From: Planctomycetota bacterium
GTDB lineage: Bacteria > Planctomycetota > Phycisphaerae > WQYP01
Assembly (NCBI GenBank): GCA_021827645.1
Contig: JAKAVA010000055.1
Coordinates: forward strand, 23,185-87,184
Length of the DNA stretch: 64,000 nucleotides
Direction of reading: 5' to 3'
How positions within the stretch are numbered: the first letter of the stretch is position 1; each line of letters begins with the position of its first letter. Below are positions 4,209 to 59,896 of the stretch, piece by piece. Made by a program: the position numbers and the translations under genes. The notes beneath the pieces are model-generated. The model searched no databases. It was given only the letters and a program-made list of their open reading frames with translations, and was not told where the DNA came from.

Positions 4209-4850
4209 ATGATGGCGCTGAAGTCACACTTGAACCCGGATCCTATCCTTCTTGATGTGGCGGATGAAAAAGGTTTCCTGTCGCCTCAGGAAATTTTCGC
4301 TCGCTCCGGACCCCTTGAATTGGAAATAGGATCGGGCAAGGGGGCATTCCTGATGCAAATGGCGGTGGCGTTTCCTGATCGAAACTTTATTGGAATCGAA
4401 TGGGCCAACGCCTATGCGCGATATGCCGCAGACCGATTTCGCCGGCATGGTTTTCAAAACGTTCGCATGGTTCATGGGGAGGCGATATGGTGGATAAGAA
4501 TTCATATAGCAGATAATACTCTCGATGCCATGCACGTCTATTTCCCCGATCCATGGCCTAAAACTCGACATCATAAAAGGCGGCTCATCCAGCAACCCTT
4601 TCTTCAACAGGCGCTGCGGGTGCTCAAACCTCTGGCTCATTTGAACATCGTTACCGATCATGCGGAGTATTTCGCGCATATCCGGCTCACCCTGGCGGAA
4701 TTTGGACATTTTTCTCTGGAGCCATTTGAATCACCTCTGCGATCCGTCGGGCGCAATTTTATGGTGGGTACCAATTTTGAAAAAAAATATGCTGCGCAGA
4801 ACCGGCCGTTTTACTCCGTCACCGCTGTAAAACCCGGAGGCATGCAGTAA
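4209..4850 (+). CDS. trmB: tRNA (guanine46-N7)-methyltransferase
   Basis: SAM-binding motif ELEIGSGKGAFL and the TrmB signature VYFPDPWPKTRHHKRRL. Confidence 0.85.
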   Translation: MMALKSHLNPDPILLDVADEKGFLSPQEIFARSGPLELEIGSGKGAFLMQMAVAFPDRNFIGIEWANAYARYAADRFRRHGFQNVRMVHGEAIWWIRIHIADNTLDAMHVYFPDPWPKTRHHKRRLIQQPFLQQALRVLKPLAHLNIVTDHAEYFAHIRLTLAEFGHFSLEPFESPLRSVGRNFMVGTNFEKKYAAQNRPFYSVTAVKPGGMQ

Positions 4851-42129: not shown

Positions 42130-43080
42130 ATGGCCAGAAAACCCTACAGCAAGATGCGATCGCAGTTGTGGAAATTCATCGAGATTAACCGCCAGTTGCG
42201 AGAACAAAAACGCACCGGGCGCCCATGCACAAAAGAAACCTTGCTTAAAGGACTCCGTTACGATGTCAACGAGCGAACCCTTCGCCGCACGCTTGAATTA
42301 ATGCGCGACGAACTCGGTGCTCCGATCGTCTACGACCGATTGCTGCAAACGTACAAATTGCAACATGACGATTGGCGTATGCCGAATATTTCCCTGGATG
42401 AGGCTGAACTGCAGGTGTTGGCGACCGCCATCCAAGCCGTCAGACCGGTTTTGCCCAAACCAATGTCCGAGCGTCTCGATAAGTTGCTGGCGAAATTGCT
42501 GGATGCCTTACCGCTTAGCCGTTGCGACGCCGTCCGACGGGCTCAAGGGCAGATTGAATTCGTTCCGGCCCCGATTCTATCCAAAGGTATGGAGTGGTTG
42601 GAACCGCTTTACCTGGCGATTCTTGATCGATATTCGGTGGATATGGTCTACCATGTGCCGAGCCGGGATGAGAATACCCGTCGCCGCTTTGATCCCTACT
42701 ACCTGCGCAACGTCCAAAGCATCTGGTATGTCGTCGGTTATGACCATTTCACCAGACATTGGCCGATCTTCAAACTGGCGCGGATTCGAGAATTAACGGT
42801 TTCTGAAGACTTATATACCGTCAAACCCTTCAGCGCCGCGAAATATTTCAAAAACAGTTTGGGCATTATGGTCGGCGGCAAGCCGCAGCACGTGCGTATC
42901 CGATTGACCGGCTATGCGGCGAGCACCGCGGAGGAGTATGTGTGGCCGGATGGCTTCACGTGCCGGCGCAACGGCCCCGGTGAGGTGATTCTTTCCGGTC
43001 AGATTGTTCATATGGCAGAGTTGCTGCAATGGACAGTGGCGTTTCAGGGGGATGCGGAAATCCTGCCGGAAGAGAAATAA
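42130..43080 (+). CDS. WYL-domain transcriptional regulator (N-terminal wHTH, WYL, C-terminal WCX-like region), BrxR/CapW-like
   Basis: N-terminal HTH (SKMRSQLWKFIEINRQLREQKRTGRPCTKETLLKGLRYDVNERTLRRTLELMRDELGAPI), central WYL-type beta region (RRRFDPYYLRNVQSIWYVVGYDHFTRHWPIFKLARIRELTV), C-terminal extension. ~316 aa, the typical size. Preceded by a ~430-bp AT-rich intergenic region. Confidence 0.75.
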   Translation: MARKPYSKMRSQLWKFIEINRQLREQKRTGRPCTKETLLKGLRYDVNERTLRRTLELMRDELGAPIVYDRLLQTYKLQHDDWRMPNISLDEAELQVLATAIQAVRPVLPKPMSERLDKLLAKLLDALPLSRCDAVRRAQGQIEFVPAPILSKGMEWLEPLYLAILDRYSVDMVYHVPSRDENTRRRFDPYYLRNVQSIWYVVGYDHFTRHWPIFKLARIRELTVSEDLYTVKPFSAAKYFKNSLGIMVGGKPQHVRIRLTGYAASTAEEYVWPDGFTCRRNGPGEVILSGQIVHMAELLQWTVAFQGDAEILPEEK

Positions 43081-43270
43081 TCTACCATCGACCCTCCGTT
43101 GCCCCTTTGCCCATGTTTATGCAAAGGTCAAAGGTCGAAGAGCCGTGGCCGGCCAAACCCGTAGGACAACATCTGTCCGTGGCATGTGGTATGACATATG
43201 CGTTAACTATTTGGCGTAGCCGGAGGCTTTCCCTCCCGTAATTGGCCTGCATGCGGAAAGGAGCTTAATC

Positions 43271-45601
43271 ATGAATGACCAGACCCAATCCACGGTCGCC
43301 GCACATCAATTCCCCTCTGTCGTCATCTGCAGTGAAGACGCCGCACCCTCCATGAGCTTTACCCAAGTTCGCGAAAACCCTTACCTCTGCGTCAAAACGC
43401 TCAAGTTTTTAGAGACATTTCTGCAGTCGGAAAAAGGCATCTTGGAAGATAATGACTTTTTTCATTTTATAGTTCACATCCTCGGCAAGCACAACACCCT
43501 TGATATGGGACGGCAATATTGTTCATTTGATGGGCTGCGCAGCATCACCAAAAGCATGCTGGAGGAATCAAATGAAGACGTAGCATCTCATGTGCTCGCG
43601 GATCTCTGGAGCCATCCCCGCACTCATGCGGCCATTAAGAAGGCCCTCCTTGCCGCCCTGGCCGAACAGAGTGAACATTGGAACAGGATCGCGGCAGAAA
43701 CAAAGGATCAAGACGTCATACGACATCGCTTCGAAGAGTTGTCGCGTCTCCTCGGGCTTACGGATGTCGAATTGGATATGCTGCTCCTCGCCTATGTCCG
43801 CTACGCGGATATCTGGGACTGGTGCTCCCTTGGGCGCACGCGCCCCGTCCGCAGGGCGTTTCAGCGAATTTGCGTCATCGCACGAATTCTCAGCCTTCCG
43901 CAGGCGGTGGCCGCAAAATATCTCCTGGAAAACGCCAAGCTCCGTTCGCTCGGGTGTCTTGATTCCGACCTTGACTTCCGATCTGAATTGGAGCCTTTCC
44001 TGATCGGCCTCTCAGAGGATCCGCTGGCGTCGAAATATTTTGTCCGCTGCAACGAGCCAGCCCTGCCGTGGTCGATGCACGGCACCCTTGCCGATCAGCA
44101 CGGCGAATGGCTCAAACGGCTCATTTGCAACCGTGATCCGAATCGCGGATTGAATATTCTGCTTTACGGCGTCCCCGGTACCGGCAAAACATCCTTTGCT
44201 CTCTCGCTGGCTGCCGAACTTGGCTATGAAATGTATCGTATTCGCGGGGCGGAGGAATTTGACAGCGATCCGATCAACTTCTGGCCCCGCTTCGCCGCGC
44301 TGCGTATCTGCGATGGTCAGGCGAATCGTGACCGCAGCCTGATCCTGATTGATGAGGCCGATGATATGCTTGATAGCGCCGGGGTCCCGTTGGGGGAGGT
44401 TAGCGCAGGTGTGACTGACGGGCGAACCGACAAAAAAGAAACACTTAATATCATCTTGGATCAACTCAGGACGCCGTGTATCTGGATCACCAACAATCAA
44501 CCGCATCATCTGGCGTCCTCGTCGCGCCGCCGGTTTGATTACTCCATTGAATTTACGCCCCTCCCGCAGCAGAAACGTCAACAAGTGTGGAAAAATCTGC
44601 GTCTGCGGTATGGACTGGCGGAAGTCATCAATGACGAAATGGTTGAGAGCCTTGCGCGACGATTCTCCATCAGCGCCGGTGGAATCGATCTGGCACTTCG
44701 CAATTTCGGCCGATTGGCACACGATCCGGCAGTTGCGGCCACCGCCATGGAATCCCTTGAGCACTTACTTCGACCGCATTGCGAACTAATGGGTATTGAC
44801 CTCGATGGCGATGCACCAACATCGATAGAATATTACTCGCTTTCCGGCCTCAATATCCGTGGACCGATTGGGCCGCAGCGTCTCTTGCAGGCAGCACGAG
44901 AGTTCCATCTGCGGCACGAGCATCGGGGGCCAACTGATAGGCGTATTCCCGGTTGTGCGCATCTGGCGGTGCTTCTCTCCGGGCCGCCGGGAACAGGCAA
45001 AACCGAATTCGTTAAATTTCTCTCCCGCGACTTGGATTGTGCTGTCCGCACCATCATGCCCGGCGATCTGCTGAGCCGATATGTCGGCGGTACGGAGCAG
45101 AACATCCGGCGGGTATTTCGAGCCGCTGCGGCTGATAAAGCCATTCTCTTTCTCGATGAAGCCGATGGCCTGTTTCGATCCCGTTCCCTTTCAGACCGAA
45201 GCTGGGAAGTGACGCAGGTTAACGAATTGCTGTCTGCCATGGATCAATTTGCAGGCATACTGGTTTGTGCTACCAATTCAGTCCAAATGCTCGATGCCGC
45301 GACCATTCGCCGCTTCACCTTTAAGCTGGAATTTGATTATCTGGATGCGGCCGGAAAGAGGGAATTTTATCAGCGCTTGCTGGTGGAACTGTGCCAGGAG
45401 CCATTGGATGGCAATCAGCAGCGCCGCCTGAATCAGATTGCCGATCTGGCGCCCGGCGATTTTTACACCGTGCGACAGGCGATGTCCTATCTGGGCGAGG
45501 GTCACAACTTCACTCACGACGATCTGCTCGCTGCTTTGGAAGCAGAAAGTCGTGCCAAACGCTTCGGCAAATCGGGCAATTTCGGTTTCGGACGGGGGTG
45601 A
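43271..45601 (+). CDS. Tandem AAA+ ATPase with ~290-aa N-terminal domain of unknown function
   Basis: Two classical AAA modules. Module 1: Walker A GVPGTGKTS, Walker B LILIDEADDM, sensor ITNN, Arg finger SSRRRFDYSIEF. Module 2: Walker A GPPGTGKTE, Walker B ILFLDEADGLF, sensor ATNS, ATIRRFTFKLEF. The RRF-type second region of homology resembles Vps4/spastin-clade AAA. The N-terminal domain is not recognisable. Confidence 0.75.
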   Translation: MNDQTQSTVAAHQFPSVVICSEDAAPSMSFTQVRENPYLCVKTLKFLETFLQSEKGILEDNDFFHFIVHILGKHNTLDMGRQYCSFDGLRSITKSMLEESNEDVASHVLADLWSHPRTHAAIKKALLAALAEQSEHWNRIAAETKDQDVIRHRFEELSRLLGLTDVELDMLLLAYVRYADIWDWCSLGRTRPVRRAFQRICVIARILSLPQAVAAKYLLENAKLRSLGCLDSDLDFRSELEPFLIGLSEDPLASKYFVRCNEPALPWSMHGTLADQHGEWLKRLICNRDPNRGLNILLYGVPGTGKTSFALSLAAELGYEMYRIRGAEEFDSDPINFWPRFAALRICDGQANRDRSLILIDEADDMLDSAGVPLGEVSAGVTDGRTDKKETLNIILDQLRTPCIWITNNQPHHLASSSRRRFDYSIEFTPLPQQKRQQVWKNLRLRYGLAEVINDEMVESLARRFSISAGGIDLALRNFGRLAHDPAVAATAMESLEHLLRPHCELMGIDLDGDAPTSIEYYSLSGLNIRGPIGPQRLLQAAREFHLRHEHRGPTDRRIPGCAHLAVLLSGPPGTGKTEFVKFLSRDLDCAVRTIMPGDLLSRYVGGTEQNIRRVFRAAAADKAILFLDEADGLFRSRSLSDRSWEVTQVNELLSAMDQFAGILVCATNSVQMLDAATIRRFTFKLEFDYLDAAGKREFYQRLLVELCQEPLDGNQQRRLNQIADLAPGDFYTVRQAMSYLGEGHNFTHDDLLAALEAESRAKRFGKSGNFGFGRG

Positions 45602-46177
45602 ATGGTGAATTTTATAGCTATTGATTTTGAAACCGCCAACCGATCTGACGAAAGCATCTGTGCCGCAGGTATGGCGATATTTACCCATGGTAGGCTTTTG
45701 GACGTGCGGCATTGGCTGATCCGACCGCCAAGGGGTTTTGATCGGTTCCGTTCGGATTGGACGGAAAGCCTCCATGGCATCGGGCACGCCGATGTGCAGA
45801 ACTCACCCTATTTCCCGGGTATCGCTGAACTATTATTTCCTCAGCTGGCCTCGGCCGATGTGGTCATTGCGCATAACGCCGCTTTCGATCTGCGAAAACT
45901 TCTGGCTACAGCCCGATGTTTCAACTTGGTCGTTCCACAGTTTGATTGCTTGTGCACGCTGGCACTGGCTCGCCGGGTTTGGCCTGATTTAGAAGGTCAT
46001 TCTCTCGACGTGCTCTGCGCCCACATCGGCCATCGGGGCCATCATCATCATGCCGGTGCAGATGCCGAGGCCGCGGGGCGTTTACTACTGGCGATGATGG
46101 CCACTACCAACACCGCGACGCCGCGTGCCTTGGCCAAAAAGCTCGGAATCCAGCCGCGCCCCGTGCCGGGCCGGTAA
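45602..46177 (+). CDS. DEDDh 3'-5' exonuclease (DnaQ/RNase T-like)
   Basis: Exo I (IAIDFETAN), Exo II (VVIAHNAAFDLRKL), Exo III with a His-rich run (HRGHHHHAGADAEAAG). Start ATG overlaps the stop of the AAA+ gene (TGAATG), suggesting translational coupling. Confidence 0.75.
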   Translation: MVNFIAIDFETANRSDESICAAGMAIFTHGRLLDVRHWLIRPPRGFDRFRSDWTESLHGIGHADVQNSPYFPGIAELLFPQLASADVVIAHNAAFDLRKLLATARCFNLVVPQFDCLCTLALARRVWPDLEGHSLDVLCAHIGHRGHHHHAGADAEAAGRLLLAMMATTNTATPRALAKKLGIQPRPVPGR

Positions 46178-49702: not shown

Positions 49703-50491
49703 TCACCGATTCTCAATCCGACCGAGTAAACGCAGCAGACCGTCGAGAATGGTGAGCGGATGCGGTGGGCAGCCGGGAATGTAAAGGTCCACCGGTAATA
49801 AATCTCCAATGCCATTATGTGTTTCCGGATGATCCACATACGGCCCGCCTGAGCAGGCGCAGGCACCTACGGCAACGACTATTTTCGGTGAAGGCGTGGC
49901 GTGATAGGCCGAAAGCAGTGCGTCCTTCATATTTGCGGTGACCGGGCCGGTAACGATTAAACCGTCCGCATGCCGCGGTGAGGCGACAAACGAAATCCCA
50001 AAGCGTGATAAATCCCAGCCGATGGTGGTAAGCACATTCAGATCGGATTCACATCCGTTGCACCCACCGGCAGAAACCTGTCTCAGGTGCAGGCTTCGGC
50101 CGAAAATCTTCCGCGTTTTTTCGTTCAGCGCGGCTGCAAGTCTTATTTCGTCCCCGTTGTTAATCGTCAGATCAATCTCACTGCGCACGGCAAGGCGATA
50201 ATCCTGCGCATGACGGATTGCGCCATGTGGGCAGGCATCGGCACAATCGGTACAGAAAAGGCATCGGCCGAGATTGACGCGGATACGTCCGGCTTCAATC
50301 TGGATCGCGTCAGTGGGGCAGGCACGCACGCATTCTTCGCACCCCTCCGGGCACCGGGCCGTGTCGATTATGGGGCGTCCACGGAATCGGCCCGGCAATT
50401 CGGGCGGCGGCCCGTCGGGAAATGCCATCGTGCGATACCCCTGCTCCAATCGAGTTTTAAGCTGTTCGAGCATCTGCATCTCCGAAATCAT
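49703..50491 (-). CDS. Fusion of 2x[4Fe-4S] ferredoxin (HycF/NuoI-like) and NuoB/HycG-like small subunit
   Basis: N-terminal two CxxCxxCxxxCP motifs (CPEGCEECVRACP; CLFCTDCADACP). C-terminal NuoB-type cluster ligands (GGCNGCESD, GACACSGGPY, IPGCPPHP). Confidence 0.8.
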   Translation of the reverse strand: MISEMQMLEQLKTRLEQGYRTMAFPDGPPPELPGRFRGRPIIDTARCPEGCEECVRACPTDAIQIEAGRIRVNLGRCLFCTDCADACPHGAIRHAQDYRLAVRSEIDLTINNGDEIRLAAALNEKTRKIFGRSLHLRQVSAGGCNGCESDLNVLTTIGWDLSRFGISFVASPRHADGLIVTGPVTANMKDALLSAYHATPSPKIVVAVGACACSGGPYVDHPETHNGIGDLLPVDLYIPGCPPHPLTILDGLLRLLGRIENR

Positions 50492-50527: not shown

Positions 50528-52075
50528 TCATAAGTCGCACCCGCAATAGGATAAGCTGAAACTTTTATTACAAAGTGGAAAGTCTGATATCTGTCCTCCC
50601 CGCATCGCCATGGCCAGGCCAAACCAGTTGTGGATCGACGGATCGGTGATGTTGTAATGTTCAAAGCGGCCGTCTGCATCGGTTAACACTGCGTGACACA
50701 GCTCGCCACGCCATGACTCCTGCAGGCTTACGGCAAACATGTCGGCTCCCAGGGCGGCGAACGGAGTGAAAGTATCACCCGACGGCAGAGATTGGAGTTG
50801 TTCACGAACAAAAGCGATGGAGTGTTGAATTTCCAGCCCACGAACATATGCCCTGGACAGCACATCGCCACCTTGGGCCGTCACCACAGGCAGATGCGTA
50901 AAGCGATATATTCCGCTCGGGTGATCGCGGCGGCTGTCCATATCAATACCACAGGCCCGTGCGGCTACACCGACCACACCGAGCTCTAACGCTGTTTTCC
51001 GCGGCAGGATGCCGGTGTGTTCAAACCGGGCGGTGACCGAAGGGGTGTTCCATAAAAGTTCAACAGCCGGCAGAAGGTTTTGCTGCGCATCAGCAAGTCT
51101 GCGGAGCAACTCAGCTCTGAGTTGATCATCGATATCAAAACCGGTTCCTCCAACTTTCACCAGCCCCCGTCCAAATCGGTTGCCGCAGAGCATCGCCGTC
51201 ATATTGAGAAAATCGCCGCGAATACGGCCGCAGTAGGATGCAGTCGGAAGAAATGCGGCATCTTTGGCCAGACCACCCAGGTCGCCGACATGGTTGGCGA
51301 TCCGCTCAAGCTCCAGAGCAATGCCTCGGATCGCGGCTGCCCGCGGACTCACCCGGCACGACGCCAAGGCCTCGACATTCTGGGCATAGGCGCATCCGTG
51401 GGCGATGGTTGAATCGCCGCAGAGCGTTTCGGCATAATGCCAGGAGCGTTTATTCGGCCCACCTTTCAGCGCCCGTTGTACCCCTCGATGCTGATATCCC
51501 AACGATATCTCCAGGTGCAGGATGGTTTCGCCGTCGCACTGGAATCGGAAATGTCCCGGTTCAATGACGCCGGCATGAATGGGCCCGACCGCCACCTCAT
51601 GCACCTGCCCGCCGTCAATGTGATAAAAATCCATGATCCCGACCTTATCATCCGCCCCGGCGAAAGGTGAACTGCGTTCGGCTCTCCGGTCCACGCTGCC
51701 AGGAAACGCCACCGGCTTGAGCCACGGGTGGCCATGCAGAGGAACCGCCAGATTTTCTGCGATCTGCCTCTCAAAGAGATGCATCTGAAAGCAGCGAGGG
51801 GTCAGGGACGGATAGCCGCTTCGGGGAGCTGAAGTAGCAGATATGTAGAGCCGCCCTGTGTGATCGTGCGCCAAAACCGCATATAACACTATTAACTCGT
51901 CACTTGTCGGATCGGGGAGCCCGAAGTGGGTTACCACACGGCAACCGTCTTTGGCGACAGCGTTGGCAATCGCGTCCTGAAACGCGGACATTGGAAGCAC
52001 GGGGATATCTGCCCGCAGCACGGCACGGCCGCCGGTGATCGCGAGCATGGTATCGCGGTATGCGGGGGTGTTCAT
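50528..52075 (-). CDS. Fused NuoC-NuoD / HycE-like large subunit lacking Ni-Fe ligands (Ehr-type)
   Basis: NuoC-like N-terminal part and NuoD / [NiFe]-large-subunit fold (GPIHAGVIEPGHFRF). The L1 position reads ETLCGDSTIAH (RxCGxCxxxH with the second Cys changed to Ser). The L2 position reads DPSIHNW (DPCxxC with both Cys lost). Confidence 0.8.
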   Translation of the reverse strand: MNTPAYRDTMLAITGGRAVLRADIPVLPMSAFQDAIANAVAKDGCRVVTHFGLPDPTSDELIVLYAVLAHDHTGRLYISATSAPRSGYPSLTPRCFQMHLFERQIAENLAVPLHGHPWLKPVAFPGSVDRRAERSSPFAGADDKVGIMDFYHIDGGQVHEVAVGPIHAGVIEPGHFRFQCDGETILHLEISLGYQHRGVQRALKGGPNKRSWHYAETLCGDSTIAHGCAYAQNVEALASCRVSPRAAAIRGIALELERIANHVGDLGGLAKDAAFLPTASYCGRIRGDFLNMTAMLCGNRFGRGLVKVGGTGFDIDDQLRAELLRRLADAQQNLLPAVELLWNTPSVTARFEHTGILPRKTALELGVVGVAARACGIDMDSRRDHPSGIYRFTHLPVVTAQGGDVLSRAYVRGLEIQHSIAFVREQLQSLPSGDTFTPFAALGADMFAVSLQESWRGELCHAVLTDADGRFEHYNITDPSIHNWFGLAMAMRGGQISDFPLCNKSFSLSYCGCDL

Positions 52076-53511
52076 GGAGATACCTCGATGTATCGCTGTG
52101 CCTGATGCAGGAGTTTAACCAACGGGGCTGGCACATGGAGCCCGAGCAGAAGGATCAGCGCCAGTAACATGAGCGGTGGGGCTACCGACAAAAAACTATC
52201 CCGAAACTGGGTATGGTAGAGGCGTCCGGGGAGCGGACGCCCCATGGTAACCGCCAGAACCGTCCGCCCCATCCCGAGAAATACCAGCAGCAGAAGGCCG
52301 ACGAAAGCCGCACCTAATAGAAAAAGATGGTCAACAAACGCTGCTTTCAGGATGGTAAATATGCCGACGAACGGCCCAAAAGGTGGCGATCCGGTGATGG
52401 CCAGAAATCCAATCATGAAGAGGGTTCCGGAAACAGGCTCTCGGCGGACGGCGCCGTGAACATCATCCGAGGATTTACTTCCATAGGCGCGATGAATATT
52501 CCCTGCCGATAGAAAGAGCATTCCCTTGGTAAGTCCATTATTGATCATCTGAAGCAGGGCACCATAGAGAGCGGGCCCGCCAATCCCGGCCCCCAGTGCC
52601 AGAATACCCATCTGCTCAACACTGGAATATGCCAGCATCCGCTTGAAATCTTTCTGTCCCATTAGAAAGACCGCCGCGACCGCCATCGAAAAGATACCGA
52701 TTGCAATAAGCAGATGGCCGGTGTAGGCACGCATGCCGGCTGCCACACAGACTCGCATGATTCGCAGGATGGCAAGAAAGGCGCAGCTCGTAAGAACACC
52801 CGCGAGTAGAGCACCAACGATGCCCGGCACTTCGCCATAGGCATCCGGCTTCCAGGTGTGCATGGGCGCCAAACCCATCTTAGTTCCGTATCCGATAAGC
52901 AGAAGCACAAATGCCATTTTCAACCAGACCGGATCTGCATCTCGGGCGTGGGCTAACAGTTGCGAAAAAAGCAGACCGGGTGTGTGATGATGAACCAGAA
53001 ACGCATAGACGAGAAAAAATGAACCAAGCAATGCTATTGCGATACCGACCGAGCAGATGAGCAGATATTTCCAGGTGGCTTCAATACTTTCCGGTGTGCG
53101 TCGGAAGTAAATCATGGGCGCGGTACACAAAGCAGTGGTCTCCATCGCAATCCAGATGAGCCCCAACTGCTGGGAACAGGTCATCAGCGTGGCACCGCCC
53201 AGAAAACCCAGCAGACAAGGAGCCAGCACGCGATTGAATCGCCCCGGCCATTGGCGCAGATAGCCGGTTCCATAGAGCGTACAGATGAAGAACAGAATAC
53301 TGGTGAGTAGCAGAACCAACTCACCGGGCGGGTCAAGACCTATCCAACCGCCGCAGATGGCTGGCGGCGGGTCGATCAGAATGGCAGCAGTGAGGAACAA
53401 ATGCGTAGCAGACGCTGCAAACACAATCCACGGTCTTAAACGGTCGGAATGGACGGCGGCGGCGGGCAGAGCGGCCAGGAAGGGGAGCAATATGATCGCG
53501 GCAAGCAGCAT
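52072..53511 (-). CDS. NuoN/NuoM/HyfF-like proton-pumping antiporter subunit
   Basis: ~14 TM helices. Mrp/complex-I antiporter-like conserved core. ATGA-type overlap with neighbours. Confidence 0.75.
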   Translation of the reverse strand: MLLAAIILLPFLAALPAAAVHSDRLRPWIVFAASATHLFLTAAILIDPPPAICGGWIGLDPPGELVLLLTSILFFICTLYGTGYLRQWPGRFNRVLAPCLLGFLGGATLMTCSQQLGLIWIAMETTALCTAPMIYFRRTPESIEATWKYLLICSVGIAIALLGSFFLVYAFLVHHHTPGLLFSQLLAHARDADPVWLKMAFVLLLIGYGTKMGLAPMHTWKPDAYGEVPGIVGALLAGVLTSCAFLAILRIMRVCVAAGMRAYTGHLLIAIGIFSMAVAAVFLMGQKDFKRMLAYSSVEQMGILALGAGIGGPALYGALLQMINNGLTKGMLFLSAGNIHRAYGSKSSDDVHGAVRREPVSGTLFMIGFLAITGSPPFGPFVGIFTILKAAFVDHLFLLGAAFVGLLLLVFLGMGRTVLAVTMGRPLPGRLYHTQFRDSFLSVAPPLMLLALILLLGLHVPAPLVKLLHQAQRYIEVSP

Positions 53512-53516
53512 GAAGT

Positions 53517-54164
53517 CTATTCCTTCAATGAAGTAAGCCTGCGAGTATCAAGCGAGGCAAAAGCGGAATGAATGTGATTGAGGATGATACAAACCACAAA
53601 AATCCCGACGAACAAATCCAGCAGGATGCCCAGTTCAACGAGAAAAGGGACCACCGCAAGCAGCAACATGCCGAAGATATAAATGCCGTTTTCAAGTATC
53701 AGGTAGCCGATGATCTGCGTCAGGGCCTTGAATCGCGTTGTCAGCAGAAGCAGTCCGGTCAGGATGGTGGACATGGATGCGGGAATGACCAGCAGAGATT
53801 TCGGATGATGCAGGCCAGATGCATGAATCGTCATCATCAGCGCTGCGGCCGTACCGGCGGCGCCGATGAGCATGCTGGGGATAAATCCGATCAGCGGCTC
53901 AACCTCATGTTTGATCCGGACGTCCCGCAACGCCTTGTCGAGCATTCGTGGTATGGTCCATCCCTTGATCCCAGCCGTAACCAGCGCCGTGATGAGAATC
54001 AGCGGGTCCACCTCTTTCACAAGCAGCAGGGGCAGGATGCTCAGCATGATCCCCTGCAGTGCGACCCCGGATATGAGTGATTTCATACGACTGACGCTCA
54101 GCAGGAAAAGATTCAGTAGCAGCACCATCGTCAGAATAGCATTAACCAGCCATGCCATCGCCAT
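53517..54164 (-). CDS. HyfE / MnhC-like small membrane subunit
   Basis: 215-aa polytopic membrane protein at the hyfE position of hyf/ehr-type operons. Confidence 0.5.
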   Translation of the reverse strand: MAMAWLVNAILTMVLLLNLFLLSVSRMKSLISGVALQGIMLSILPLLLVKEVDPLILITALVTAGIKGWTIPRMLDKALRDVRIKHEVEPLIGFIPSMLIGAAGTAAALMMTIHASGLHHPKSLLVIPASMSTILTGLLLLTTRFKALTQIIGYLILENGIYIFGMLLLAVVPFLVELGILLDLFVGIFVVCIILNHIHSAFASLDTRRLTSLKE

Positions 54165-55114
54165 TACCTCAACGCCAGAATAAAACCCAGGCCGCTGAGC
54201 ACGGCGGCGGCCGCCAGCAGCGTCGGAACATGGCGCAGCGGCAGGCGGGCCATTACCGATTCAATAATGCCGACAAGCACCGCCGTCGCAGATGCCTCCA
54301 AAATAAACAGCACCCAACTGAGGATGGGTATGCCGGTGTGCGGCGGGCCGATAAACAGCAGCACCAGATTGATCAGAATCAGCAACCGGAGACTGGAGGC
54401 GTACTGAACCGCCGCCAGCAGGGGACCGCTGTGATCCAGTACCATCACTTCATGGATCATGGTCAGTTCCAGATGTGTGTCGGGATCGTCGACCGGGACG
54501 CGGGACGTTTCCGCCAGCAGAAAGACAAACAGGCCAACGGCCGCCATGAGCCGTGGTCCGACCGAGCCCTGTTTGAAAGGTGCCAGCAGTAAGGTGTTGA
54601 GGCTCAGGCCGCTGGAAAACCGGATCATGATCAGCAGACTGAAAATAAGGGCGGCCTCGGAGACAACGGCAAAAGATACCTCTCGGGCAGCGCCCATCCC
54701 TTCAAAGGATGAGCCGGTATCCAGCGCCGCAGAGGTGGTAAAGAAGCGGGCCGCCGCGAACAGGTAAACAAATAATATGACATCACCGGCGAAATGGATT
54801 GGCGCCGGTGAGGAGCCGATGGGGATCAGTAATTCCACCGCGAGCATCGCTCCCACCGCAACGAGCGGACCGGCAAAGAATATCCATGTCGTTGTATTGC
54901 TGATGACAAGGGTTTTGCGGAGGAGTTTGAAGATATCCAGATATGGCTGCCGCAGGGGAGGGCCGCGCCGACCGGCCATCGCCGCTTTTACCTTGTTGAT
55001 GATGCCGGGAAATAGGGGCGCAATCGCCAGCGGAACTAGAAAATGCGTGGCGATGGAGAGGATGAGTTGCGGTGTCGTCGTGTGCAGCATGTCAGTGTCC
55101 CCATAGCCGGGCAA
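54164..55114 (-). CDS. NuoH / HycD-like membrane subunit
   Basis: N-terminal quinone-site-like region (LVPLAIAPLFPGIINKVKAAMAGRRGPPLRQPYLDIFKLLRK) and eight TM helices. Confidence 0.8.
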   Translation of the reverse strand: MPGYGDTDMLHTTTPQLILSIATHFLVPLAIAPLFPGIINKVKAAMAGRRGPPLRQPYLDIFKLLRKTLVISNTTTWIFFAGPLVAVGAMLAVELLIPIGSSPAPIHFAGDVILFVYLFAAARFFTTSAALDTGSSFEGMGAAREVSFAVVSEAALIFSLLIMIRFSSGLSLNTLLLAPFKQGSVGPRLMAAVGLFVFLLAETSRVPVDDPDTHLELTMIHEVMVLDHSGPLLAAVQYASSLRLLILINLVLLFIGPPHTGIPILSWVLFILEASATAVLVGIIESVMARLPLRHVPTLLAAAAVLSGLGFILALR

Positions 55115-57110
55115 AGAGGTTGCCGAACGGAATCAAGGCCAGCAGCACGACCACTGCCGCCAGCATGTAGAAGAGATATTGCTGCACGCTCCCTTGCTGC
55201 AGCCACCGAATCGGTCGTGTGCCGAGTTTGATGTAGTGCCAGAGCGTATGTGTTGCCCGGTCCGTTATGAAAGGGGGTATCTCCGTTTCATATTCGATGG
55301 GCTTGGGAAATAATCCGATGGGAGTTTTGCCGTGCGCAAGGGGCCGAAGCACCCAGCTCCAGAGGCCCACCAAAATGCCGGCGAACGATGTGCCTGTATA
55401 TTGCATGCGGCTTCCAGTGGCCGAATATCCACAGCCCCACGTGGGTGCGCTGGCGACGGGGATAAATCTCCGCGAGATTCGGACAAGGTAAAAAATGGCA
55501 ACGGCCACGACGACCATGCTGAAATTCAGCACGGTAAGCGTCCCCCATGGAAAAGCCCGGATCAGCATGCCCTGCACGTGAGCACGGCCCATCCACACCG
55601 CAGCGGCATGGCTCAGCGGAACCAGCACCACCAGAGGAAACACCCCCACGAGCCCGCAGAGCCCCGCAAGCAGAAGCATCGGTGCAATCATGCTGCCCGG
55701 GGATTCATGCACCTTGGCGGCACGCTCTGTGCGCGGCGAACCCAGAAACACAACCCCGTATACTTTCACAAAGCAAGCCACAGCCAAACTTCCAACCACT
55801 GCAAGAATGACGGCGTCGGCCGAGATCAGTGCCCAGATTCCCGAATCCTTTCCCGCAGTTGGATGGAAGAGCCCCAGATAGACGAGCAGTTCGCTGACGA
55901 ACCCGTTGAGCGGGGGCAGCCCGCAGATGGCCAAGGCTCCAACCAGAAAGAGATTACTGCTCCAGGCCATATGCCGCGCCAGTCCGCCCAGCGCATCGAT
56001 CTGCCGCGTTCGCGCTGCAGAAATGACCGAACCGGCTGAAAAAAACAGAAGCGATTTAAAGAGTGCGTGATTCCAGACATGCAGGAGACATCCGGCAATT
56101 CCCAGCACTTCCCAGACCGGGTGATCGGTTGCGGCTCCGATCATCGCCACGCCCAATCCCATGAGAATAATGCCAATGTTTTCAATGCTGTGATACGCCA
56201 GCAGTCTTTTCATATCATGCTGCCCCAGAGCGTAGACGACGCCCAGCAGTGCATTGATGGAGCCGAGAATCAGAACCATCACACCCCAGAGGGCGGGGGG
56301 GTGCGGCAGTAACGTCAGAATTCTCAGCAATCCATAGATGCCGATTTTCAGCAGAACGCCGGAAAGCAGGGCGGAAATATGGCTGGGTGCCTGGGCATGT
56401 GCCCCGGGCAGCCAGAAATGCAGCGGCATAATACCAGCCTTAAGCCCGAAGCCGACAAGGGCCAGCAGGAATAGAGCAGTTTCAATCTTCCATCCTGCTG
56501 CAGCCGGTAAGGGGACCAGCAGAAAACTGCCCGAGGCGGCGTGCAGAAGCGCGAATAATGCCATGAGCAAAAGTGTGGCAAGATGGGTGGCAACAAAATA
56601 AATCCAAGCCGCCTGTCGACACGCCGGATTCTGATCCTCGGTCGCAATCAGAAAAAAGCTCGCCAGTGCCATGATTTCCCATGCCATGATGAACGCCAAA
56701 CCGTCATCGGCAACCGTTACCAGCACCATGCCGGCAACGAACAGTCCGTAAAAAAAACGCAACCGGCGCCCGGTGCGAGGATGCCGACGCTCATTCCAAT
56801 ATCCCTGCCCGTAAACAGATCCGGCTGCGGCCATCACAAAGACCGGCAGTGCAAAAAAAGCGGAAAGCGGATCAAGGCGGAAATGGAGCGGCCAGTTGGG
56901 ATACACCGCCCGTACGGTCAATACGGGTGCCGGCCCATTTAAAAAGAGCAGTACGTCGAGACAGACCGCCGCACCTAAGGCGCCGCCAAGACAGGTGAGT
57001 GCGGTTGCAGACATTTGTCCCCACGAGGCTCGAGCTTTTGCCGCCAGTCCAAGTGTTCCGGCGACCATGAGCAGCAATGCCGCACCCAAGAGTAAAATCA
57101 ATGGAAACAT
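55092..57110 (-). CDS. NuoL / HyfB-like antiporter subunit
   Basis: 672-aa, ~16 TM helices, conserved NuoL-family core (WLPGAHAQAPSHISALL...). Confidence 0.8.
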   Translation of the reverse strand: MFPLILLLGAALLLMVAGTLGLAAKARASWGQMSATALTCLGGALGAAVCLDVLLFLNGPAPVLTVRAVYPNWPLHFRLDPLSAFFALPVFVMAAAGSVYGQGYWNERRHPRTGRRLRFFYGLFVAGMVLVTVADDGLAFIMAWEIMALASFFLIATEDQNPACRQAAWIYFVATHLATLLLMALFALLHAASGSFLLVPLPAAAGWKIETALFLLALVGFGLKAGIMPLHFWLPGAHAQAPSHISALLSGVLLKIGIYGLLRILTLLPHPPALWGVMVLILGSINALLGVVYALGQHDMKRLLAYHSIENIGIILMGLGVAMIGAATDHPVWEVLGIAGCLLHVWNHALFKSLLFFSAGSVISAARTRQIDALGGLARHMAWSSNLFLVGALAICGLPPLNGFVSELLVYLGLFHPTAGKDSGIWALISADAVILAVVGSLAVACFVKVYGVVFLGSPRTERAAKVHESPGSMIAPMLLLAGLCGLVGVFPLVVLVPLSHAAAVWMGRAHVQGMLIRAFPWGTLTVLNFSMVVVAVAIFYLVRISRRFIPVASAPTWGCGYSATGSRMQYTGTSFAGILVGLWSWVLRPLAHGKTPIGLFPKPIEYETEIPPFITDRATHTLWHYIKLGTRPIRWLQQGSVQQYLFYMLAAVVVLLALIPFGNLFARLWGH

Positions 57111-57116
57111 CTTGAC

Positions 57117-57836
57117 CTATCGCCTTACGTTCGATGCTATCGGTGCGGCTGAGGAAGGAATTTCCGCCTCCGCCAGAACCAGCGCATCCAGCAGGCCCTC
57201 GCGGGAAATCTGATCCAGTACAGCACGGCGAAAAAAGCCGTTCCGCAGGACAAAACCCAAGCGGGACAGAAGATGAAGATGCGCCCGTACCGTCGGGCTT
57301 ACGAGTGTGAATAACGTGGTGACGGGTCGTTGATCCATGGCGCCGAACTCAATCGGGTTCTCCAGAAAGCACAGCGCAACCAGCGGCCGCGAAAGGTGCA
57401 AAACGACAGGATTGCGGACATGTGGAATGGCAATACCGTCACCGATTGCCGTGGAGCCCAGCATTTCACGTGCGAGCAGAACCTGGTAGAGAAATTCTCG
57501 ATCAACCTCATCGGGAAGATTCATAATGTCGACCACCGCCCGGAGCACCTCTTCGCGATTGGTGCCGCCGACGCGGTAATGCACGCCGCCAGCGCGAAGG
57601 GCATCGGTCAAAGTTGGAAGGGGGGAATCTCCCCCTTCCGGCTCCTGAAATATTTCCGGCGAGACGTTAAGCCGATGGGATGTAGCCCACTCCAGGAGTT
57701 CAGCACGGTTGAAACGATATTGATCACTCACCTGGTAGGCTGGGATGGAGCCATTTTTGATCCACCGGTAAATGCTCTTTTCCGACACATTCAGCAATCT
57801 CGCAGCATCTTTGACGGTCAGTTTCACGGCGATCAT
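57117..57836 (-). CDS. HTH_17 (excisionase/MerR-like) DNA-binding domain fused to PTS EIIA type-2 (EIIA-Ntr-like) domain
   Basis: N-terminal HTH (LTVKDAARLLNVSEKSIYRWIKNGSIPAYQV), C-terminal EIIA-2 domain with phosphorylatable His motif GIAIPHV. First gene of the Ehr-like operon, 6 bp before the NuoL-like gene. Real start may be the GTG at 57827 (AGGAG 9 nt upstream). Confidence 0.7.
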   Translation of the reverse strand: MIAVKLTVKDAARLLNVSEKSIYRWIKNGSIPAYQVSDQYRFNRAELLEWATSHRLNVSPEIFQEPEGGDSPLPTLTDALRAGGVHYRVGGTNREEVLRAVVDIMNLPDEVDREFLYQVLLAREMLGSTAIGDGIAIPHVRNPVVLHLSRPLVALCFLENPIEFGAMDQRPVTTLFTLVSPTVRAHLHLLSRLGFVLRNGFFRRAVLDQISREGLLDALVLAEAEIPSSAAPIASNVRR

Positions 57837-57845
57837 CTCCTACAG

Positions 57846-57886
57846 AAATGTCCATATATTACTCAAAATGTCCATAAATGTCCAAC
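57846..57886. promoter_or_regulatory. Triple direct repeat AAATGTCCA (TGGACATTT on minus strand) upstream of the regulator / Ehr operon
   Basis: Seen directly: ATGTCCA at 57848-57854, 57868-57874 and 57878-57884, i.e. spaced 20 and 10 bp apart in phase with the helical repeat, 10-50 bp upstream of the first minus-strand start codon. Confidence 0.35.
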
Positions 57887-58039
57887 GATAAGAAACAATT
57901 AGAAAGTACGCCGATGCGGTGGATATTCTTAGGTGTTTTGCCGGTATTTACGTATTCGCAAATATATATGATATATTCGCGTTTATCAATGTTTTAAGAA
58001 CAGTGGTTCTGGTAGTCTGGTAAGACGATATGACGCGTG

Positions 58040-58462
58040 TCATTTCCCAAGTTGGTTGAAAATATCCTTCAGGGCACAGGTTGCCGCGAGTACTGCAGGA
58101 AACCCCGCATACAGCGCGCAGTGTTCGGTGATGCCGATGATTTCTTCTCTGGTGATTCCGAGTTTCAGCGCGGCGCGGACATGCGATTGAAATTCGCGTC
58201 CCAGATGCCCAAGACATATCAGGGCGGTAAGGGTGGAGATCTGACGAGATCGTGCGTCAATTTTTGGACTCTGGTAAACGGTACCGTAGCCGAACTCAAT
58301 AATCCATTTTTTCAGTTCGGGATTGATCTCATCCAGCGACGAGAGAACCTCAACCCCAAAGTCACCATGAAGTTGCCGGAGCCTGTTTTGCCCTGATTGC
58401 GTTTTTTTCTTTCGGCCTGCGGTGGGATTTTTTCGATGTGGAAGCGGTGCACTTTTTGCCAA
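58040..58462 (-). CDS. Carboxymuconolactone decarboxylase (AhpD-like) family protein
   Basis: CMD-family core including the conserved EIIGITEHCALYAGFP helix with Cys-x-x-x-His. Lys/Arg-rich N-terminus makes the true start uncertain. Confidence 0.65.
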   Translation of the reverse strand: MAKSAPLPHRKNPTAGRKKKTQSGQNRLRQLHGDFGVEVLSSLDEINPELKKWIIEFGYGTVYQSPKIDARSRQISTLTALICLGHLGREFQSHVRAALKLGITREEIIGITEHCALYAGFPAVLAATCALKDIFNQLGK

Positions 58463-58543: not shown

Positions 58544-59896
58544 TCAGTGTCTGGACTTTTGACGCAACCAGTTGGCAAGCGCCGACGGCCAATGCCGCAA
58601 CTGGTAAAGAAGCGATTCATAACGAATGCGATTTGAAATCTGCCGCAGATAGTGATCATCCGGTGCAATATCCAGTGCTTCGCCAAGCCAATAGCGGGCA
58701 CGGGCAAAATCTCGTCGATTCAGATAAGCCATCGCCAGATTGGACATGGCCAGAACGTGCTTCGGCTGGATTTTGAGCGTCTCTTTGCATTCCTTGATTC
58801 CCGCATCCATATCCCCACTGATCAGACACGCGACAGCGAGTCCGTGGTGCGCATCGGCATTCGTATCTGAATTTTTCAATACGCGGCGCATGGCCAATTT
58901 GGCGGCCTCCAATTGCCCCAGATCAATCAGCAAACTGCCGAGTTCAAGCAATGTGTGGTCATCGATTTCAGGTTGTGCGAGTTCGCAGTTGGCGTGATAA
59001 AGCGTTTCGGCCCGATTCTTGGCGCGATGGTAGAGTTGCGCCATCTTCAGATGGGCGCCGACGAATTGCGGATCGTGCCTGAGGACAAACTTGAATCGAT
59101 CCAGCGCGAGCCGCGAATCTCCCTCCAGTTGCGCCAGAACTCCCAACTGGAAGTGAGCGGAGCAGTTTTCCGGATCCAGATCCAGTACTTGGCGGAATTT
59201 TTCCGCCGCTGACCCGTTGTTACCCATTTCCATCAGCAGTTCGCCGAGATCGAGCAGGGTATCGATATTCCCGGGGTCTGACCGCAGTTCTTCCATCAGA
59301 TGGCGGCGAGCTTCCGAGTGTTGGTTCTTAGCCCAGTAAACATCGGCAATTCGAGCGTGCACCTGGGGATAGTCCGCATCGATTTCAAGCACCTGCTGCC
59401 AGCACCACAGCGCCCGGTCATAGCGACCGCGGGCGTAGAGCGACACGCCGATGTTGTATAGGCATACCGGGCATTTTTCCTTGTATTGTCGGGCGATATA
59501 GAACATTTCCTCTGCCCGGTCATGTTCGTCAAGTTCGGTATACGCCACGATCCGATTGCAGTAGCTGGATTCATAATTCGGATCGATCGCCTCAACACGC
59601 TCAAAATAACTGATCGCATCACGGTAGCGTTCCAGACGATTGCAATTGGTGCCCGCGGCACTGAGCGATTCAATGTCCTGCGGATCAATCTCCAGCGCCC
59701 GACGGTAGGCGTCGAGTGCTTCTTCATGGCGTTCCATCATGTCAAGCGTCAGGCCCAGATTGAAGTACCAAGCACCCATGTGGGGATTAATTTCGATGGC
59801 TCGTTTTAATTCAAAAAGCGCTTCTTCCCACTTGCCACGTTCATACAGGTCGTGGGCTCGTTCTATGCGCCGTTCTGCTTCCTGCCAGTCACTCAT
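58544..59896 (-). CDS. TPR-repeat protein
   Basis: About 11 tetratricopeptide repeats throughout (W..A...Y..G.Y..A...F..AL...P). Confidence 0.75.
   Translation of the reverse strand: MSDWQEAERRIERAHDLYERGKWEEALFELKRAIEINPHMGAWYFNLGLTLDMMERHEEALDAYRRALEIDPQDIESLSAAGTNCNRLERYRDAISYFERVEAIDPNYESSYCNRIVAYTELDEHDRAEEMFYIARQYKEKCPVCLYNIGVSLYARGRYDRALWCWQQVLEIDADYPQVHARIADVYWAKNQHSEARRHLMEELRSDPGNIDTLLDLGELLMEMGNNGSAAEKFRQVLDLDPENCSAHFQLGVLAQLEGDSRLALDRFKFVLRHDPQFVGAHLKMAQLYHRAKNRAETLYHANCELAQPEIDDHTLLELGSLLIDLGQLEAAKLAMRRVLKNSDTNADAHHGLAVACLISGDMDAGIKECKETLKIQPKHVLAMSNLAMAYLNRRDFARARYWLGEALDIAPDDHYLRQISNRIRYESLLYQLRHWPSALANWLRQKSRH

Follow-up and report, generated by a model that had tools for sequence, protein, structure and literature searches.

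A conserved HTH_17-EIIA fusion regulator at the head of an Ehr operon and a candidate operator of phased repeats

Results

Gene organization at the locus

The window analyzed here is the whole 64,000-nucleotide (64-kb) stretch of contig JAKAVA010000055.1 (GenBank assembly GCA_021827645.1), which comes from a Planctomycetota bacterium of the Phycisphaerae. Its minus strand encodes a two-domain protein, hereafter the regulator, that joins an excisionase/MerR-like helix-turn-helix (HTH) domain of the HTH_17 family to an EIIA domain of the phosphoenolpyruvate (PEP)-dependent phosphotransferase system (PTS). The gene stands directly upstream of an operon for an Ehr-type complex and is itself preceded by three phased copies of a short repeat. 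Comparison with related loci indicates that the pairing of regulator and Ehr genes recurs in about ten phyla and points to the repeats as a conserved candidate operator. We favor, with the reservations set out below, a dedicated regulator that acts on its own promoter and thereby on the Ehr genes. Public annotations call this protein "PTS sugar transporter subunit IIA" or "PTS system nitrogen regulatory IIA component".

The mechanical open reading frame (ORF) list places the gene at 57117-57836 on the minus strand, with an ATG at 57836 and 239 amino acids (aa). The homologues all begin MKLTV, and an AGGAG at 57841-57837 abuts this ATG and lies 9 nt upstream of a GTG at 57827. Because the homologues begin in this way and the AGGAG abuts the ATG, translation more likely begins at the GTG, 9 nt past the ATG, which predicts a protein of 236 aa. 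The 239-aa protein of the original prediction therefore stands in its reading frame and in both domains, with a start that probably lies 9 nt further downstream. As that prediction also had it, the gene ends 6 bp before a NuoL-like gene on the same strand: the stop codon occupies 57117-57119, the 672-aa HyfB/NuoL-like gene begins with an ATG at 57110, and no convincing terminator was found between the two.

Six same-strand genes follow the regulator, after which convergent genes end the unit. Their families (Proton_antipo_M twice, NADHdh, HyfE-like, Complex1_49kDa, and Oxidored_q6 with Fer4) form a group-4-hydrogenase/complex-I-like set, and NF005086, the model matched by the first structural gene, is named "hydrogenase 4 subunit B". 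In the large subunit, LCGDSTIAH (second Cys changed to Ser) and a C-terminal SYCGCDL (CxC) replace the two CxxC pairs of NiFe hydrogenases, a call made by eye against published motifs (PMC10284858). This loss of CxxC motifs fits the published definition of Ehr (PMC10284858, PMC6349859). Domain content and gene order thus agree with the proposal that the regulator heads an Ehr-type operon.

The regulator joins an HTH_17 domain to a PtsN-like EIIA domain

The predicted HTH_17 plus EIIA-2 architecture was recovered with both Pfam domains well above their cut-offs (61.6 and 75.6 bits, respectively, against 27). The N-terminus also passes the NCBIfam model TIGR01764, "excisionase family" (54.7 bits against a cut-off of 28.8), whereas Pfam MerR stays below threshold (19.7 against 28.2 bits). 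Pfam finds neither a coiled coil nor a MerR effector domain in the regulator, and no PRD (PTS regulation domain) or EIIB family. The linker between HTH_17 and EIIA is only about 30 residues long and is nearly invariant among close homologues. Searched alone, the HTH domain gives weak, non-significant matches to RacA and to BldC (6amk/6ama), with E values of 0.5-1.2.

The HTH_17 and "excisionase family" matches, and the fact that excisionases bind phased direct repeats, could be read to mean that the gene is what remains of an excisionase (Xis/AlpA type) from a mobile element, with the repeats as recombination-directionality sites. Neither an integrase nor any other mobile-element gene was seen beside the regulator, however, and its HTH is fused to an EIIA domain. 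Its conserved synteny with Ehr genes, fixed in about ten phyla, effectively refutes this idea, to which we give next to no credence.

The EIIA assignment is well supported at the level of the fold. A profile built from 22 homologues matches the PtsN structures 4gqx, 3urr, 1a6j and 2a0j over about 150 residues (E = 4e-18 to 4e-14), and the top Foldseek matches of an AlphaFold2 (AF2) model are PtsN 3urr, 4gqx and 2a0j, with target-normalised TM-scores of 0.77-0.80 and root-mean-square deviations of 2.7-2.9 Å. The fold, whose absence the original prediction had named as grounds for abandoning the idea, is thus present. In addition, GDGIAIPH aligns with the PtsN motif G-x-G-[IV]-A-I-P-H (IAIPH in E. 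coli PtsN, VAIPH in the Burkholderia proteins), and AHLHLLS aligns with the second conserved PtsN histidine motif. Both the GIAIPH and the AHLH histidine are invariant in the 22 close homologues, and their conservation is at least 90% in 22 divergent ones. No other gene of the module is as conserved as the regulator, which has a median identity of 69% compared with 50-56% for the Ehr subunits; these loci were picked by regulator similarity, and the same trend appears in a set picked by HyfB.

These data bear on whether the domain is a PTS sensor at all. An EIIA-like domain could instead serve as a PTS-independent module for ligand binding, protein docking or oligomerisation, and would then respond to a signal other than PEP/pyruvate. 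EIIA-2-like folds do occur outside the PTS, for example in the cytoplasmic domains of anion exchangers. Two divergent members of the family lack the histidine (IPQ and IPN), no HPr or enzyme I (EI) gene is linked to the module, and the regulator occurs in many phyla. The high conservation of the linker and of the whole protein also hints at extra partners. On the other hand, the two histidines are invariant in close members and conserved family-wide, genuine PtsN proteins head both the sequence and the structure matches, and Planctomycetes possess a regulatory EI while having no PTS transporters (PMC2405797). We regard a PTS-independent role as a serious, though less likely, alternative and favor a domain that receives a phosphoryl group.

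Two architectural variants were found outside the window, namely EIIA-HTH_17-EIIA (P0271, 421 aa) and 2xHTH_17-EIIA (P0272, 332 aa). A third protein, P0173 (836 aa), joins HTH_17, half an EIIA domain and Proton_antipo_M. It was considered as a natural regulator-HyfB fusion and set aside as a single cluster that is most likely a frameshift or assembly artefact.

Phased repeats overlie a predicted promoter

Just upstream of the regulator gene, TGGACATTT occurs in three exact copies on the minus strand, with starts at 57884, 57874 and 57854. The start-to-start distances are 10 and 20 bp, in keeping with the helically phased triple repeat first noticed from the sequence alone, and the strand from 57884 to 57846 reads TGGACATTTA TGGACATTTT GAGTAATATA TGGACATTT. 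One further exact copy lies in the 64 kb, at 4703-4711 on the plus strand. Across the window, TGGACATTT is the sole non-trivial 9-mer with three occurrences inside 45 nt, and a triple of any 9-mer within 45 nt arose in 1 of 100 first-order Markov simulations of the window.

A consensus scan places a sigma-70-like promoter over these repeats, with TGGACA (57884-57879) and TAATAT (57861-57856) separated by a 17-bp spacer. The two hexamers are imperfect, matching 9 of 12 consensus positions. The nearest relative, L001, is a metagenome-assembled genome of the Phycisphaerae that shares 92-93% identity in the regulator and 89% in the HyfB-like protein. Between it and the window, the block formed by the boxes and the -10 is the best-conserved stretch of the intergenic region. 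A sigma-54 reading of TGGACA was rejected, as no GC is seen (by eye) at the required +10/11 position, and neither the leader nor the intergenic region has an Rfam match at E <= 1.

The box design recurs across genomes

Among 80 genome loci, the region upstream of the regulator follows a recurring design: aTTGACATyt-N-tGGACAt, about 9 nt, ataat, (A)TGTCC, N5, TTGTCC. Two direct hexamers thus lie 10 bp apart, the first of them a perfect -35, followed by the -10 and then by two inverted hexamers, again 10 bp apart, so that the four are symmetric about the upstream edge of the -10. Their offsets from the start codon are nearly fixed across phyla, at -76/-66 for the direct and -49/-39 for the inverted boxes. 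When 39 promoters were anchored on the TTGAC[AG] hexamer, the equivalent of box 2 in the window was tGGACAt, 10 bp after TTGACA, while the position of box 3 is taken in most relatives by inverted TGTCC boxes. Because TGGACA and TGTCCA differ only at the two central bases, a switch of box orientation amounts to two substitutions. Phycisphaerae relatives L002-L005 retain the common design with a shorter leader.

The hexamers are concentrated at this site. In the 130 nt upstream of the regulator in 77 genomes, compared with the remainder of the loci, TTGACA is enriched 48-fold, TGGACA 24-fold, TGTCCA 21-fold and TTGTCC 18-fold. We defined a paired box as a couple of T[GT]GACA hexamers that are 10 bp apart and have a total mismatch of at most 1. 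The 836 kb of loci contain 75 paired boxes: 65 fall within the 140 nt that precede a regulator gene, and 3 of the remaining 10 lie 160-430 nt upstream of one. The window holds exactly one, at 57884, and neither a second paired box nor other regulon members were found elsewhere in its 64 kb. The proposal that the repeats are candidate operator sites is strengthened by TGGACA/TGTCCA boxes that keep fixed promoter offsets in many phyla and are scarce elsewhere in the loci. They appear to constitute a conserved operator, which the regulator itself may well bind.

Box number also follows the regulator's recognition helix. Within a set of 127 loci, those whose helix ends in YRWIK carry a mean of 2.0 half-sites, with at least two in 71%, and those with other recognition helices a mean of 0.9, with at least two in 26%. 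No boxes at all accompany the most divergent helices (SESTVTRWIKHR, DENTIYQWIRQD, PEETVNRWIDKK, SPNQVRQWIK and SERTVSEWAR). This covariation of helix and box supports a pairing of the regulator with the boxes.

The same comparison bears on two other accounts of the repeats. In one, they are promoter architecture only, that is, -35-like hexamers and AT-rich phasing, or the site of another factor, and the regulator acts elsewhere or on the Ehr complex. TGGACA is indeed one substitution from TTGACA, the first box is the -35, and binding of the boxes by the regulator is deduced from sequence comparison. The inverted TGTCC boxes and the spacer box are not promoter elements, however, yet they keep fixed offsets in many phyla; the paired motif is nearly confined to the regulator promoter, and box presence follows the type of recognition helix. 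We therefore consider this account improbable. In the other, the regulator works on the same boxes as an activator, of class II or MerR-like, that recruits or remodels RNA polymerase at the -35. The HTH_17 fold is related to MerR, the placement of box 2 in the spacer recalls that of MerR sites, and the imperfect hexamers of the window could need help. Against this stand the spacer of 17 bp, compared with 19-20 bp in MerR-type promoters, the perfect TTGACA and near-consensus -10 in most relatives, the presence of more boxes at and past the start site, which is an occluding layout, and the lack of a coiled coil, an effector domain and a significant MerR match noted above. Activation is the main competing reading, which we nevertheless consider rather unlikely, and repression is the mode we favor.

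A short GGGCA element precedes the start codon by about 27 nt in L036, L039, L041, L043, L053, L064, L067 and others. It falls in the predicted 5' leader, past the last TGTCC box, and is found in several phyla.

The regulator is widespread and linked to Ehr genes

A search of 5.8 billion proteins returned more than 6,700 matches, the best 120 of which are all two-domain and 68-95% identical to the regulator. An exhaustive search of representatives gave 423 clusters (50% identity level) at E <= 1e-30, and a species-level scan with one genome per species found a relative of the regulator in at least 584 genomes. Gene neighborhoods were followed for the best 80 of these 584 relatives. They belong to the Planctomycetota (Phycisphaerae, Tepidisphaerales, Sedimentisphaerales and Pirellulales) and to the Myxococcota, Spirochaetota, Acidobacteriota (Thermoanaerobaculia), Lentisphaerota, Kiritimatiellia, Verrucomicrobiota, Latescibacterota, Chloroflexota and Desulfobacterota. 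In every one of the 79 loci that extend past the gene, drawn from about ten phyla, Ehr genes follow on the same strand. The HyfB-like gene starts between -14 and +218 nt from the regulator stop in 74 of the 79, frequently with a 4-nt overlap. The exceptions are four Acidobacteriota with one intervening gene of about 2 kb and one locus with another gene order.

The linkage extends to more distant relatives. Divergent representatives (38-44% identity) were taken by direct look-up, and a profile search seeded with divergent members re-found the core group; in 5 of 5 informative cases the gene lies directly upstream of a HyfB-like gene, often with a 4-nt overlap. Conversely, a survey of metagenomes that started from the HyfB-like protein found the regulator upstream in 60 of 72 informative loci, with a flank of 2.5 kb upstream, so that some regulators scored as absent may sit further upstream. 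The survey of other genomes that had been proposed for HTH_17-EIIA2 fusions ahead of ehr/hyf-like operons thus gives a strongly positive answer. The coupling had been called unusual; with a relative of the gene in at least 584 species' genomes and the neighborhoods known for the best 80, it is better described as uncharacterized than as rare.

Some close HyfB-like loci are arranged differently. In L157 and L168 (about 800-2490), a response regulator and a HAMP histidine kinase stand directly upstream of the HyfB-like gene, and in L137 (1636-2433) a NuoI-NuoB fusion gene takes that place, with no HTH-EIIA gene in any of the three. Loci of this kind suggest that different lineages have substituted another sensor or another order of genes. 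In L082 (441-5000) and L083 (725-4926), from one divergent lineage, the regulator follows genes for malic enzyme, a CitMHS transporter and a SulP(-STAS) transporter on the same strand, with 2 nt between the SulP gene and the regulator gene in L082. These neighbors hint at dicarboxylate or anion metabolism.

Table 1. Positions of the regulator gene, its putative control elements, the downstream operon and the palindrome in the window
Feature	Position	Strand	Notes
Imperfect palindrome CGCAAATATAT/ATATATTCGCG	57957..57981	.	Between the CMD-family (carboxymuconolactone decarboxylase) gene and the promoter; membership of the system doubtful
Box 1, TGGACATTT	57876..57884	-	Its TGGACA is the -35-like hexamer; TAGACATTT in L001
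Box 2, TGGACATTT	57866..57874	-	In the promoter spacer, 10 bp from box 1; identical in L001
-10-like hexamer TAATAT	57856..57861	-	17 bp after the TGGACA of box 1; identical in L001
Box 3, TGGACATTT	57846..57854	-	2 nt past the -10, over the expected transcription start; TGGACACTT in L001
AGGAG, putative ribosome-binding site for the GTG start	57837..57841	-	Same placement of (A)GGAG in close relatives
Regulator gene (REG)	57117..57827	-	236 aa from GTG 57827; ORF list, Pfam and homologue N-termini
HTH_17 (excisionase/MerR-like winged helix) DNA-binding domain	57675..57821	-	Residues 6-54 of the 239-aa ORF; PF12728
PTS EIIA-2 (PtsN-like) domain	57192..57575	-	Residues 88-215; PF00359
His139 CAT codon (GIAIPH), putative phosphorylation site	57420..57422	-	Aligned on the PtsN histidine
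HyfB/NuoL-like antiporter-type subunit (EhrA-like), first structural gene	55092..57110	-	PF00361; NF005086 571 bits, below cut-off of 667
NuoH/HyfC-like membrane subunit	54164..55114	-	PF00146
HyfE-like membrane subunit	53517..54164	-	NF008556 E = 1.9e-19, below its cut-off
HyfF/NuoM/N-like antiporter-type subunit	52072..53511	-	PF00361; hydrogenase-4 subunit F models
NuoC-NuoD-like fused large subunit, Ehr type	50528..52075	-	PF00346; without intact NiFe CxxC motifs
NuoI-like 2x[4Fe-4S] ferredoxin and NuoB-like small subunit fusion, last gene	49703..50491	-	PF01058 and Fer4; NuoB and HyfH models

Discussion

Our analysis suggests how the regulator might control the Ehr operon. We judge it probable, if well short of certain, that the regulator is a dedicated one-component autoregulator, most likely a repressor, of its own promoter and of the Ehr operon, and that it is modulated via the EIIA histidine. 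In this mechanism, the N-terminal HTH_17 winged helix would recognize TGGACA hexamers, and several regulator molecules would sit side by side on one helix face, as the 10-bp phasing would permit. Where an inverted pair of boxes is present, a dimer of such pairs might form, possibly held together by the EIIA domains. Regulators bound in this way would cover the -35, the spacer and the transcription start of the sigma-70-type promoter, so that occupied boxes would shut it, and the Ehr genes would be controlled through co-transcription with the regulator. Repression is favored because the near-consensus promoter hexamers, with their 17-bp spacer, are overlapped by boxes that lie over and past the -10. 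The PtsN-like EIIA domain would provide the input, with a regulatory PTS probably passing a phosphoryl group to the conserved His139 through a carrier of the HPr/NPr type. Whether the histidine is phosphorylated would then set DNA affinity or oligomerisation and tie Ehr expression to the PEP/pyruvate, and hence carbon/energy, state of the cell. What we observe is the pair of domains with their conserved histidine, the linkage of the genes and a conserved box layout specific to this promoter; we infer the binding, the repression, and the phosphorylation of His139 with its donor from sequence comparison, and the PTS wiring from the conserved histidine.

Several observations weigh against this mechanism. 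A Myxococcota-type subgroup with the near-identical helix SEKSVYRWIK has 0-1 boxes, so that box recognition is not proven by covariation; moreover, counts across genomes are not phylogenetically independent, and relatedness inflates them and weakens the covariation. Part of the hexamer enrichment is a promoter signal, since box 1 doubles as the -35 hexamer. The window and L001 themselves depart from the common design, with three direct boxes (the third TGGACA just past the -10) in place of two direct and two inverted ones. At the protein level, the AF2 model reaches no more than moderate confidence (mean pLDDT 66, with 70-90 across most of the EIIA domain) because the alignment is shallow, at 22 sequences of about 70% identity. 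The regulator also scores far below both PtsN equivalog cut-offs (NF008145, 56.3 against 221 bits; TIGR01419, 55.4 against 138.7 bits), and by these scores it is PtsN-like but not a PtsN orthologue. Finally, no PTS genes were found among the neighbors of the module, and no HPr-like gene was found in 1.42 Mb (the window and the loci), although this is a weak test.

The regulator might also do more than bind DNA. PtsN is known to dock on TrkA or KdpD. By analogy, the regulator could be a conserved signal-input subunit of the Ehr module, bound to the promoter in one phosphorylation state and, in the other, docked through its EIIA domain on the Ehr membrane arm, where it would gate ion translocation. 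Dual constraint from DNA, phospho-donor and complex would explain why the regulator is the most conserved protein of the cluster. We view this extension as speculative and hardly to be expected.

The regulator can be compared with several known systems. In its C-terminal 150 residues it has the fold and the histidine motifs (GIAIPH and AHLH) of PtsN/EIIA-Ntr (PF00359), and PtsN proteins are purely regulatory, with a phosphorylation state that reports metabolic status. PtsN, however, stands alone as a protein of about 160 aa and works through contacts with other proteins, whereas the regulator has a DNA-binding domain of its own and is encoded with its putative target operon. A 2026 review of PTS-Ntr makes no mention of DNA-binding fusions.

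The PRD regulators MtlR, LicR and ManR are DNA-binding activators with a C-terminal EIIA(Mtl/Fru)-type domain that are switched by PTS phosphorylation. At about 650-700 aa, they comprise a DeoR/Mga-type HTH, two PRDs and an EIIB-like domain. The regulator likewise joins DNA-binding and EIIA-type domains and would work like the MtlR/LicR-type transcription factors of Firmicutes, but it lacks PRD and EIIB, its HTH is of the excisionase/MerR-like type, and its putative target encodes a respiratory-type complex, where theirs are sugar operons. Classical MerR activators differ from it in their coiled coil and effector domain and in their over-long spacers of 19-20 bp, compared with 17 bp here. BldC and Xis resemble it in layout: the regulator has a small MerR-like winged helix without a coiled coil and candidate sites that are short direct repeats at one-turn spacing. 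BldC binds direct repeats head-to-tail through such a winged helix (PMC5859096), and the 10-bp phased direct boxes of the regulator promoter are compatible with analogous head-to-tail multimers. BldC and Xis are nonetheless single-domain proteins without a sensor, similarity of the regulator to BldC is non-significant (6amk/6ama, E about 1), and most promoters of the regulator family add an inverted pair of boxes.

The operon itself resembles Ehr complexes such as Geobacter GSU0739-45 in its NuoL/M/N-like, NuoH-like and HyfE-like subunits, its CxxC-less large subunit and its small subunit, and differs from them in that NuoC-D and NuoI-B are fused genes in the window. Published accounts call the function of Ehr unknown (10.1101/765248, PMC6349859, PMC10284858, PMC7894505), and the searchable text of these papers does not mention a linked HTH-EIIA regulator. 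In Geobacter proteomics, Ehr subunits are up with formate (PMC7894505). Our literature search, mostly outside subscription journals, found no published account of the HTH-EIIA fusion, its operator or its linkage to Ehr. What appears to be new is that a putative PTS-type sensor and a DNA-binding domain are directly fused in one protein, which seems dedicated to a respiratory-type complex.

Ehr complexes, which are related to complex I and to membrane-bound hydrogenases, are widespread, and a dedicated conserved regulator with an input domain and a defined candidate operator offers an experimental entry point to their function. The EIIA domain's phosphorylation or ligand state would be set by the very condition under which cells want Ehr. 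If the proposed mechanism is true, it would give the regulatory PTS an output that binds DNA directly, in a minimal protein of two domains. It would also extend PTS signaling to the Planctomycetota, Lentisphaerota, Spirochaetota, Acidobacteriota, Myxococcota and others, where the role of a transporter-less PTS is poorly understood. The candidate operator, with four near-palindromic hexamers (two direct and two inverted) around the -10, is moreover a compact test case for DNA reading by HTH_17 proteins.

Additional features of the window

In about half of the related operons, among them L002-L004, L007, L012-L016, L019-L020 and L022-L023, the HyfB-like and NuoH-like genes are separated by a further antiporter-like gene of about 2 kb. 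The window and L001 are without it.

The imperfect palindrome reported upstream of the repeats is present at 57957-57981, where it is AT-rich and consists of 11-nt arms that are 91% complementary and a 3-nt loop. As RNA it would form a hairpin of -10.5 kcal/mol (z = -2.15) without a U tract. A promoter-like TTGATA-17-TATATT overlaps it and is not kept in L001. The palindrome occurs in none of 168 related loci, and L001 keeps only the outer GCGAA/TTCGC (5 bp). With no U tract, and with no conservation in L001 or the 168 loci, it was rejected both as a second operator and as a terminator.

Further upstream lie a gene of the carboxymuconolactone-decarboxylase family (58040-58462, minus strand) and one for a 450-aa TPR protein (58544-59896, minus strand). 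Both are placed outside the conserved module because they are common only to L001, at 77% and 96% identity, respectively. Elsewhere in the window, at 42130-46177 on the plus strand, consecutive genes encode a 316-aa protein with a WYL domain, a protein of 776 aa that contains two AAA ATPase domains and a 191-aa exonuclease of the RNase_T type, a trio that resembles the layout of a defense or regulatory cassette.

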